DNA of 64,000 bases. Source: Eledone cirrhosa. Its lineage: Eukaryota. Position numbers and translations under genes: made by a program. A model generated the notes under the pieces. The model made no database searches. It was given only the letters and a program-made list of their open reading frames with translations, and had not been told where the DNA came from. Location: contig OZ024747.1 in the NCBI GenBank assembly GCA_964016885.1, forward strand, positions 51,150,001 through 51,214,000, read 5' to 3'. Below, in pieces: positions 11,084 through 11,419 of the stretch (positions within the stretch are counted from its first letter, which is position 1; every line of letters starts with the position of its first letter).

Positions 11084-11417
11084 TATCTGAGGGTTCTAAA
11101 CCCCGTTATCAAGCTAAAATTCCTTTAGTTAAAAATACGGTGAAAGCTATATATTTTCTAATTTCAAACTCGCTCAGTTTCAAAACATACTTACTTGCCA
11201 TTTAAACTCGCTAAGAATGTAATTTCTAATTTGAATGGAAAGAGATGGGTGATGTGTTGGTTTAATGGTAGCACAGTGGTCGCGATAACCACAGATGTGG
11301 GTTCGACTCCTATGTACGTCAATACTCATCTTTTTCCATTTATCTAAGGGTTCTAAACCCCGTTATCAAGCTAAAATTCCTTTAGTTAAAAATACGGTGA
11401 AAGCTATATATTTTCTA

Positions 11418-11419
<2 letters not shown>
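11084..11419 (+). repeat. 79-bp direct repeats (11084-11162, 11341-11419) enclosing a tRNA-like hairpin; 257-bp period
   Basis: Repeats identical except at one base. Confidence 0.85.
11251..11321 (+). other. tRNA-like cloverleaf (probably non-functional or element-borne)
   Basis: Acceptor GATGTGT/GTACGTC (G-U rich), A-box TGGTTTAATGG, anticodon stem GTGGT/ACCAC with loop CGCGATA (no U33), T-loop TTCGACT. Confidence 0.6.

Follow-up and report, generated by a model that had tools for sequence, protein, structure and literature searches.

A tRNA-like repeat unit of Eledone cirrhosa: a probable non-autonomous Penelope-type partial tandem with a candidate hammerhead-free route to a circle

A 336-nt stretch of Eledone cirrhosa DNA (11084–11419, in the 64,000-nt segment of contig OZ024747.1 analysed here and called the window) carries a tRNA-like cloverleaf between direct repeats, raising the question of what kind of element it is and how it could have moved. 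The two 79-nt repeats (11084–11162 and 11341–11419, + strand) occupied both termini of this stretch, differed at a single position (G11089 versus A11346) and had a period of 257 nt; blastn extended the pair to 82 nt at 97.6% identity, confirming the 79-bp repeats and 257-bp unit first described for this locus. The 257-nt unit (11163–11419) began with an AT-rich spacer (11163–11231) in which a folding signal was absent (z = 0.11) and ended with the downstream repeat. The upstream repeat was a pseudo-LTR-like, 5′-truncated copy of the unit's 3′ end, abutting on its own 5′ side the tail of a LINE and a few AT bases. The locus comprised 1.3 units with one tRNA domain, and at its 3′ junction lay a (TA)n microsatellite (11418–11494), the likely insertion target. 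At 257 nt and 35% GC the unit was inside the range of retrozymes (170–400 nt, GC <50%).

No further copies of the unit were found in the 64-kb window by blastn or nhmmer; the single-copy state, which the initial annotation had named as evidence against its reading, applies to this window. Two 13-nt matches at 23836 and 24059 were rejected as copies, being part of an unrelated purine-rich direct duplication (23780–24200, period ~223 nt, 87 nt at 96.6%). A long target-site duplication (TSD) was ruled out as the source of the 79-nt repeats, since on both sides they end exactly where the entire non-microsatellite sequence ends. Identity as a MITE or a TRIM was also rejected, matching ends and a TSD being absent on reading the sequence.

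The cloverleaf (11251–11321, + strand) scored 32.9 bits against Rfam RF00005 (gathering cut-off 29) and was called tRNA-Ser(CGA) by ARAGORN, the sole tRNA call in 64 kb. Its A box (11258–11268) and B box (11301–11311) were both intact, and the 71-nt cloverleaf with A and B boxes noticed initially was borne out. Of 23 invariant or semi-invariant positions, taken from established tRNA knowledge, 21 were retained, and the two broken ones, U33 and R37, were both in the anticodon loop; U33 was present in 136 of 137 comparison tRNAs. The tertiary bases U8-A14, A15:U48, G18-U55, G19-C56 and U54-A58 were retained too. With G33, U37 and a 4-nt variable loop, where tRNA-Ser has U33, a purine at 37 and a long variable arm, the cloverleaf is not a real tRNA-Ser and the Ser assignment is nominal. 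The tRNA started at an offset of 167 nt in the insertion and 88 nt in the unit, so the class of tRNA-derived SINEs, in which a tRNA head forms the 5′ end, was rejected. A ~190-bp SINE-like family is present in the window (at 2306, 2537, 29732, 32909, 37600, 38946, 53744, 55179 and 62041; 86–91% identity, B-box motif in seven), and none of its nine head-bearing copies was given a tRNA call.

The acceptor stem was extended by a clamp with arms at 11232–11250 (5′) and 11324–11342 (3′), both on the + strand, the latter containing a T5 run (11331–11335) that may be a Pol III terminator. The long stem seen earlier was real, its length being 19 bp (16 Watson-Crick and three G.U pairs) and not the ~17 bp first given. 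No shuffle of the flanks in 100000 gave a clamp of more than 15 bp, and the tRNA/clamp region folded at z = -5.1 (0/200 shuffles). The 40 stem pairs comprised 30 Watson-Crick, nine G.U, one U.C and no A.C pairs (G.U versus A.C, p = 0.002), and clamp and acceptor together had six G.U and no A.C (p = 0.016), counts to which the parent tRNA may have supplied some G.U pairs. Folded as a circle, the + strand gave z = -2.9, better than 100 of 100 shuffles, and the - strand z = -0.85. The occurrence of G.U without A.C, together with folding of the + strand beyond its shuffles, points to a history at the RNA level; A-to-I editing and selection cannot be told apart as the source of the G.U pairs from one copy.

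The canonical cloverleaf lay 6.3–6.8 kcal/mol above the best fold, versus a median of 0 and a maximum of 6.7 kcal/mol for 98 real tRNAs (6/98 at 5 or above), which were drawn from 137 distinct tRNAs by leaving out those with fewer than 15 assignable pairs. The predicted probability of the acceptor stem was 0.01–0.25 and that of the D stem was also low. The hexamer GATGTG occurs twice, on the 5′ strand of the acceptor (11251–11256) and at the start of the T arm (11294–11299), and because of this doubling the energy model prefers a fold that rivals the cloverleaf, which could be a switch or an accident.

The closest prokaryotic relatives of the cloverleaf were mostly tRNA-Trp(CCA). Top matches among phage and plasmid tRNAs were mostly of this type (79–81% over ~52 nt), and a pattern of anticodon stem plus T stem, with the loop left open, was found at no fewer than 120 GTDB loci (about 150 estimated); among the 120 matches listed, 116 were tRNA-Trp(CCA), one Thr, one Cys and two uncalled. 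The exact pattern of D arm plus anticodon stem had no match in GTDB, and identity over the whole length was ~65–70% (best 47/72 among the listed GTDB loci; 50/72 to 53/76 among phage tRNAs, a Gly tRNA included). A direct prokaryotic tRNA source was rejected on these two grounds. The rest of the unit had a single weak phage match (32 nt, E 0.3, among 13 records). A horizontal or viral origin of the tRNA body is a lead and not a result, the comparison having covered prokaryotic and phage tRNAs only.

The initial annotation had placed the unit among non-LTR retrozymes, which move through a hammerhead ribozyme (HHR). A hammerhead-like motif was present in the upstream repeat (11087–11149, + strand), with a core 1 carrying A9->G, placed 9 nt ahead of a 4-bp stem II, then U-GAAA, a palindromic AGCU and UA; it was not a canonical HHR. 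Core 1 read CTGAGGG upstream (one mismatch) and CTAAGGG downstream (two mismatches), neither of which matches CUGANGA, and the 9 nt displacing stem II from core 1 were common to both repeats. Within the unit itself helix I had 0 bp in register, or 2 bp if a base is skipped, and the 8-bp helix I of the upstream copy borrows the LINE tail. Hammerheads were absent among 45 Rfam matches (E ≤ 10) in 9500–13000. A descriptor for the minimal HHRs of Penelope-like elements (PLEs), run without a shuffle control, matched 16 sites elsewhere in the window, several of them in palindromic ends of PLE type, and none at the unit; when loosened post hoc to fit the upstream repeat, it matched 12 of 3000 shuffles and nine of 961 complex window chunks. 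The repeat alone folded no better than its shuffles (z = -0.38). HDV-like, twister and pistol folds were rejected as well, with no fit by eye to their consensus and none among the Rfam matches in 9500–13000.

The repeat carries U-GAAA-GC-UA; a U preceding GAAA is frequent in Hydra-clade HHRs (PMC8557442, part of File S2), and a palindromic stem III is described for PLE minimal HHRs in the accessible part of PMC4209133. Of 14 alignments with HHR-like segments elsewhere in the window, the best was to a PLE-end piece at 12257 (p = 0.006, uncorrected). The motif is possibly a degenerate hammerhead relic, broken already when this copy was made, and since its lesions are common to both repeats the element likely moved without a working ribozyme. 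The HHR-like signature first claimed for the repeats survives in the upstream CTGAGG; the downstream repeat has CTAAGG, CUGANGA is absent, and neither Rfam nor the descriptor matched. Membership of the non-LTR retrozymes fails because their defining type I hammerhead (cores and helix I) fails in both repeats, and the CUGANGA core that the initial annotation had made decisive for a family consensus is wanting in both repeats of this copy. The element may still work like a retrozyme.

Near-perfect palindromes were seen elsewhere in the window at 9200–9340, 9555–9870, 28870–29140, 32581–32904, 34237–34569 and 38059–38428, several with CTGANGA...GAAA cores and a long stem II, typical of inverted PLE ends; in the palindrome centred at 9271 the fold-back point lies at the ribozyme core itself. 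Small hammerhead motifs on the - strand at 44091 and 9272 have U flanking stem II on both sides, as in Hydra-clade HHRs. A GC-richer island (11495–11911, - strand), bordered on either side by a (TA)n tract and containing an open frame that ends near 11699, is possibly another truncated LINE end; its + strand has ATATCTGAGG in common with the unit's repeat, and a GCGC hairpin before TGAAA.

The layout of the locus pointed to Penelope. A partial tandem with repeats reaching both termini of 11084–11419 is the pseudo-LTR arrangement of PLEs; the (TA)n tract at the 3′ junction is a weak PLE criterion since such tracts are abundant across this repeat-rich window. According to the available sections of PMC8557442, partial tandems (pseudo-LTRs) and (TA)n targets are PLE traits, non-autonomous PLEs with pseudo-LTRs exist, and Naiad PLEs have pseudo-LTRs without HHRs; as these Naiad pseudo-LTRs arise without a ribozyme and with no circle known, the layout needs no circle. 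A Hydra-type PLE with two overlapping ORFs was identified at 16090–18586 (- strand), its reverse transcriptase (RT) and C-terminal endonuclease regions carrying RWR, DKT, CxCX5C, CxxC and CxH motifs, a set that fits the description of the (TA)n-targeting Hydra clade in section 11 of PMC8557442. ORF 16090–17880 gave 24 protein matches, the only named ones being from Octopus sinensis and O. bimaculoides (47–48%). Elements of this kind are possible suppliers of the RT. The protein published as Hydra-1_Obim (PMC8557442, part of the supplement) is different from this one. A second 3′ piece (43660–43993) is 84% identical, and the sequence upstream of it recurs at 12353–12634 (99–100%). The unit had no blastn match to the 3′ end of the window's Hydra-type element. 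Mobilisation by Penelope, as first proposed, fits the partial tandem, the (TA)n neighbour and a Hydra-type Penelope in the same window; of the circular permutation proposed with it, the layout does fit a circular or multimeric template. The locus is probably a non-autonomous Penelope-type partial tandem, a reading common to the three leading models discussed below.

The LINE abutting the upstream repeat (10168–11083, + strand) is a 5′-truncated 3′ end, which we take to be L1/Tx1-like, with zf-RVT (PF13966, E 3.6e-4, below the curated cut-off) and AATAAA. It gave two protein matches, the named one from Argonauta hians (56%), and has relatives in the window at 51109, 52733–53726 and 59270. It is likely a separate insertion; insertion of the LINE into a tandem array was rejected, similarity between the LINE 5′ flank and the unit being not significant (p = 0.12). 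The window also contains a 384-bp element twice in opposite orientation (26063–26446 and 29876–30259, 96.6% identity) and two long minisatellites of 15-nt period on opposite strands (2800–6542 and 48885–50352), open in several frames.

How such a unit would be transcribed was less simple than had been proposed. Inside the unit, the T5 run separates the tRNA from the downstream repeat, and transcription from the internal promoter would tend to end at this run. That the clamp goes on for another 7 bp beyond it suggests transcripts reaching further than a Pol III product terminated at T5 would. The earlier claim of Pol III drive holds as to the intact A and B boxes and is doubtful as a simple drive. 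For the Pol III transcription that had been ascribed to animal retrozymes, neither "Pol III" nor "polymerase III" occurs in the accessible text of PMC7229834; Pol III is reported for the SINE-like HHR repeats of Schistosoma in the part of PMC6765202 available.

The anticodon loop C32-G33-C34-G35-A36-U37-A38 (11281–11287, + strand) is self-complementary at 32–35 (CGCG). When two such arms pair antiparallel, a central 4-bp helix is flanked on each side by a 3-nt bulge and then by a 5-bp stem; this is a predicted inter-unit bulge-helix-bulge (BHB), to be cut between 11286 and 11287. Predicted cuts at 37/38 in two tandem units would delimit an "intron" of exactly one 257-nt unit, and ligation would restore the loop. 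The two-arm cofold had an energy of -16.3 kcal/mol in the strict BHB form, and the two separate hairpins one of -8.0 kcal/mol. When a tandem dimer was modelled, both clamps were swapped with a probability of 0.99, and the probability of the C32-G35′ pair was 0.97 at 37°C, 0.83 at 25°C and 0.38 at 18°C; in a modelled precursor that starts with the unit n leader and stops at the T5 run of unit n+1 it was 0.98 at 37°C and 0.87 at 18°C. A slipped 6-bp register (UCGCGA) was slightly favoured at 37°C (0.58, versus 0.39 for the strict U31-A39′).

The CGCG palindrome was noticed post hoc: Watson-Crick palindromes make up 16 of 256 4-mers, and those that also have C32-G35 four of 256, a chance rate of 1.6–6%. 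With other loops on the same scaffold the helix was found in 0/60 random and 0/22 real tRNA loops (the Trp loop included), a control that mostly restates this chance rate; the single palindromic loop among the real ones gave the helix at 0.15. Clamp swapping without the helix was not special (9/60 random and 9/22 real loops). Eukaryotic tRNAs with an AGN anticodon are palindromic at 32–35 too, and none was among the sampled loops. ARAGORN in intron mode read the modelled precursor as two plain tRNAs, with no intron call.

In the consulted part of PMC10275265, the BHB of tRNA introns is defined by an N32-N35 helix with cuts in 3-nt bulges, and in that of PMC6614914, all 16 of 16 fly intron-containing tRNAs have a C-G proximal pair and 6 nt from its C to the exon end. 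The modelled dimer has the 4-bp N32-N35 helix, the 3-nt bulges, the C32-G35′ pair and the C32..U37 spacing. A fully paired anticodon-intron helix reduces circle yield in flies (same portion of PMC6614914). Tandem transcripts of intron-containing tRNAs can adopt a permuted structure and be cut by an archaeal endonuclease in vitro, according to the available text of PMC3978253. As described in the portion seen of a preprint on the HARBOR system (bioRxiv 10.64898/2026.10.12.758436), a BHB on a human tRNA scaffold yields cellular circles of hundreds to 8000 nt, and archaeal pre-tRNA BHBs on the human scaffold yield no circles. Among the titles and abstract openings listed for BHB, TSEN or tricRNA with retroelements, no TSEN-circularised mobile element was found.

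On these grounds we tentatively place first a model in which the locus is a 1.3-unit partial tandem of a tRNA-mimic repeat that would be circularised by host TSEN and RtcB, rather than by a hammerhead, and copied by a Penelope RT; the model is built from one copy with one tRNA, and we hold it with less than even confidence. The substrate would be the tRNA-shaped domain with its 19-bp clamp and CGCG at 32–35. A tandem master locus elsewhere, transcribed either by Pol II reading through or by Pol III that fails to stop at a single T5 run, would give an RNA of at least two units. Neighbouring units are predicted to exchange halves, the 5′ half of n pairing with the 3′ half of n+1 and vice versa, and the paired loops would form the stem, bulge, 4-bp helix, bulge and stem with a tRNA body on each side. 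TSEN would then cleave 3′ of U37 on both strands and release a piece of exactly 257 nt that begins at A38 of unit n and ends at U37 of unit n+1; RtcB would seal this piece with the loop restored without gain or loss. A leader-trailer helix can block RNase P and Z, and the clamp would in this way prevent them from excising the tRNA from the circle. A (TA)n-targeting Penelope RT would prime on the circle and roll more than one turn, 1.3 in this copy, leaving terminal repeats. The present copy, having one tRNA only, would be a dead end in cis.

The TSEN/RtcB model is ranked first because it alone explains the retained tertiary core, violations confined to the loop, the clamp, and mobility with a dead ribozyme. 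Against it count the post hoc palindrome, the slipped register, the weak cloverleaf and the fall of modelled pairing at low temperature; each unit, folding as it is transcribed, would first be caught as a hairpin of its own, and what is duplicated at this locus is the HHR-like end and not the tRNA. A palindrome expected by chance at 1.6–6%, weak cloverleaf stability, intact A and B boxes, a partial tandem beside (TA)n and the known non-autonomous PLEs with pseudo-LTRs, HHR-free in Naiads, are what one would also see if the tRNA were merely the internal Pol III promoter of a ribozyme-free, non-autonomous Penelope-type element like MRC1 of Chlamydomonas, with pseudo-LTRs from a copied linear transcript of more than one unit and an incidental CGCG. 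Such an element leaves unexplained a 19-bp clamp reaching 7 bp beyond T5, the retention of the tertiary core (SINE heads with a cloverleaf, 0/9) and the G.U-only mismatches, and the T5 run lies within the unit; we regard it as a possibility on the unlikely side. Rather unlikely is the model of the initial annotation, a decayed non-LTR retrozyme of the Schistosoma SM-alpha type with a Pol III promoter and a type I hammerhead in a tandem unit, whose active masters would self-cleave after GCUA and be closed by RtcB. In its favour, two HHR-like motifs bracket exactly one unit, U-GAAA with the palindromic AGCU resembles PLE minimal HHRs, the relaxed motif is found in 12 of 3000 shuffles, the size of 257 nt and GC of 35% suit the class, and the piece at 12257 aligned at p = 0.006 (best of 14, before correction). 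The mismatched core 1 and 9-nt insert of both repeats, a helix I of 0–2 bp, the lack of an Rfam match, a descriptor tuned post hoc and a repeat fold of z = -0.38 speak against this. Promoter and decayed retrozyme taken jointly come close to an even chance.

Two further explanations would give the unit another history. The LINE 3′ end abutting the repeat on the same strand, a SINE lying closely behind another copy of this LINE family, and the single-copy state in 64 kb would suit a fragment of a tandem tRNA-pseudogene satellite, brought by LINE 3′ transduction, by template switch or left as a deletion remnant, with no processing role. No TSD of the LINE spans both elements (flank similarity p = 0.12), the few AT bases between LINE and repeat are those expected of two insertions in one (TA)n, and the strand-specific structure would go unexplained, so that this origin appears improbable. 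Adenoviral VA RNA is a short Pol III RNA closed by a terminal stem, and the domain could be such an RNA of ~100 nt, or a kissing-loop dimer signal, possibly of viral origin: T5 pairs with a purine leader that would be a likely Pol III start, the 6-nt UCGCGA register slightly exceeds the strict BHB in stability, and the closest tRNAs found were of phage or bacterial types. A clamp exceeding the T5 run and terminal repeats left without explanation make this the least probable reading of all.

Compared with known systems in the portions of the sources available to us, the unit resembles animal non-LTR retrozymes (PMC7229834; bioRxiv 10.64898/2026.07.22.740005) in being non-coding, within 170–400 nt, low in GC, copied as more than one unit and found together with PLEs; RtcB-type closure is proposed for them as for the unit. 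It differs in having no canonical type I HHR, a clamped tRNA-shaped domain and a proposed TSEN cut. The sampling of the retrozyme preprint (bioRxiv 10.64898/2026.07.22.740005), in the part seen, covered 31 vertebrates, three insects and one anthozoan. With the SM-alpha repeats of Schistosoma (PMC6765202, in part) it shares a Pol III-type promoter in a tandem unit, permuted relative to the unit end, but SM-alpha has an active HHR, whereas the unit has a broken one, T5 after the tRNA and a long leader-trailer stem. A BHB-like motif at 37/38 and a C32-G pair, with the TSEN cut and RtcB circle proposed here, recall the tricRNA pathway, permuted tRNA genes and engineered HARBOR circles (PMC6614914, PMC3978253 and bioRxiv 10.64898/2026.10.12.758436, each in part). 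Unlike these, the unit has neither an intron nor a decoding tRNA, its BHB would form from two identical loops, the "intron" would be the whole repeat, and the product would be a transposition template. The pseudo-LTR partial tandem, (TA)n target and U before GAAA are as in MRC1-type non-autonomous and Hydra-clade PLEs (available sections of PMC8557442), from which the unit is set apart by its tRNA-like core and by having no demonstrated similarity to the window's Hydra-type 3′ end. Helenus TRIMs (Kojima 2024, PMC10886601, in part) are likewise short and non-autonomous, with direct repeats and tRNA-like sequence; their tRNA is in the LTRs, and they have a PBS, a PPT and a 4–5 bp TSD, while the unit's tRNA is between the repeats. 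Helenus/TRIMp3 was rejected on reading the sequence, the unit having no TG..CA ends, no PBS after either repeat and no TSD.

The feature is real; it is not a retrozyme by definition but a non-autonomous Penelope-type variant with a candidate mechanism. New relative to the initial annotation is the self-complementary anticodon loop as an alternative route to a 257-nt circle. That it represents a ribozyme-free class of mobile RNA, whose whole element is treated as an intron, released as a unit-length circle and spread by a Penelope RT, is a doubtful proposition at present; it would be a retrozyme with TSEN replacing the hammerhead, possibly on a body resembling tRNA-Trp of a bacterial, organellar or viral kind. 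If the mechanism is false, the locus adds one unclassified repeat with a tRNA-derived promoter to the non-autonomous elements of Penelope type. A search rule follows, for tRNA-like tandem repeats with a palindrome at 32–35, which are invisible to hammerhead-based screens for retrozymes. If true, the unit would exploit the tRNA-splicing pathway as a natural genomic parasite and would be a natural counterpart to engineered tricRNA and HARBOR circRNA vectors, and an example of a third route to circles for mobile RNAs, besides ribozyme cleavage and back-splicing. It would also bear on the origin of PLE pseudo-LTRs from circular templates and on the dispensability of the ribozyme.
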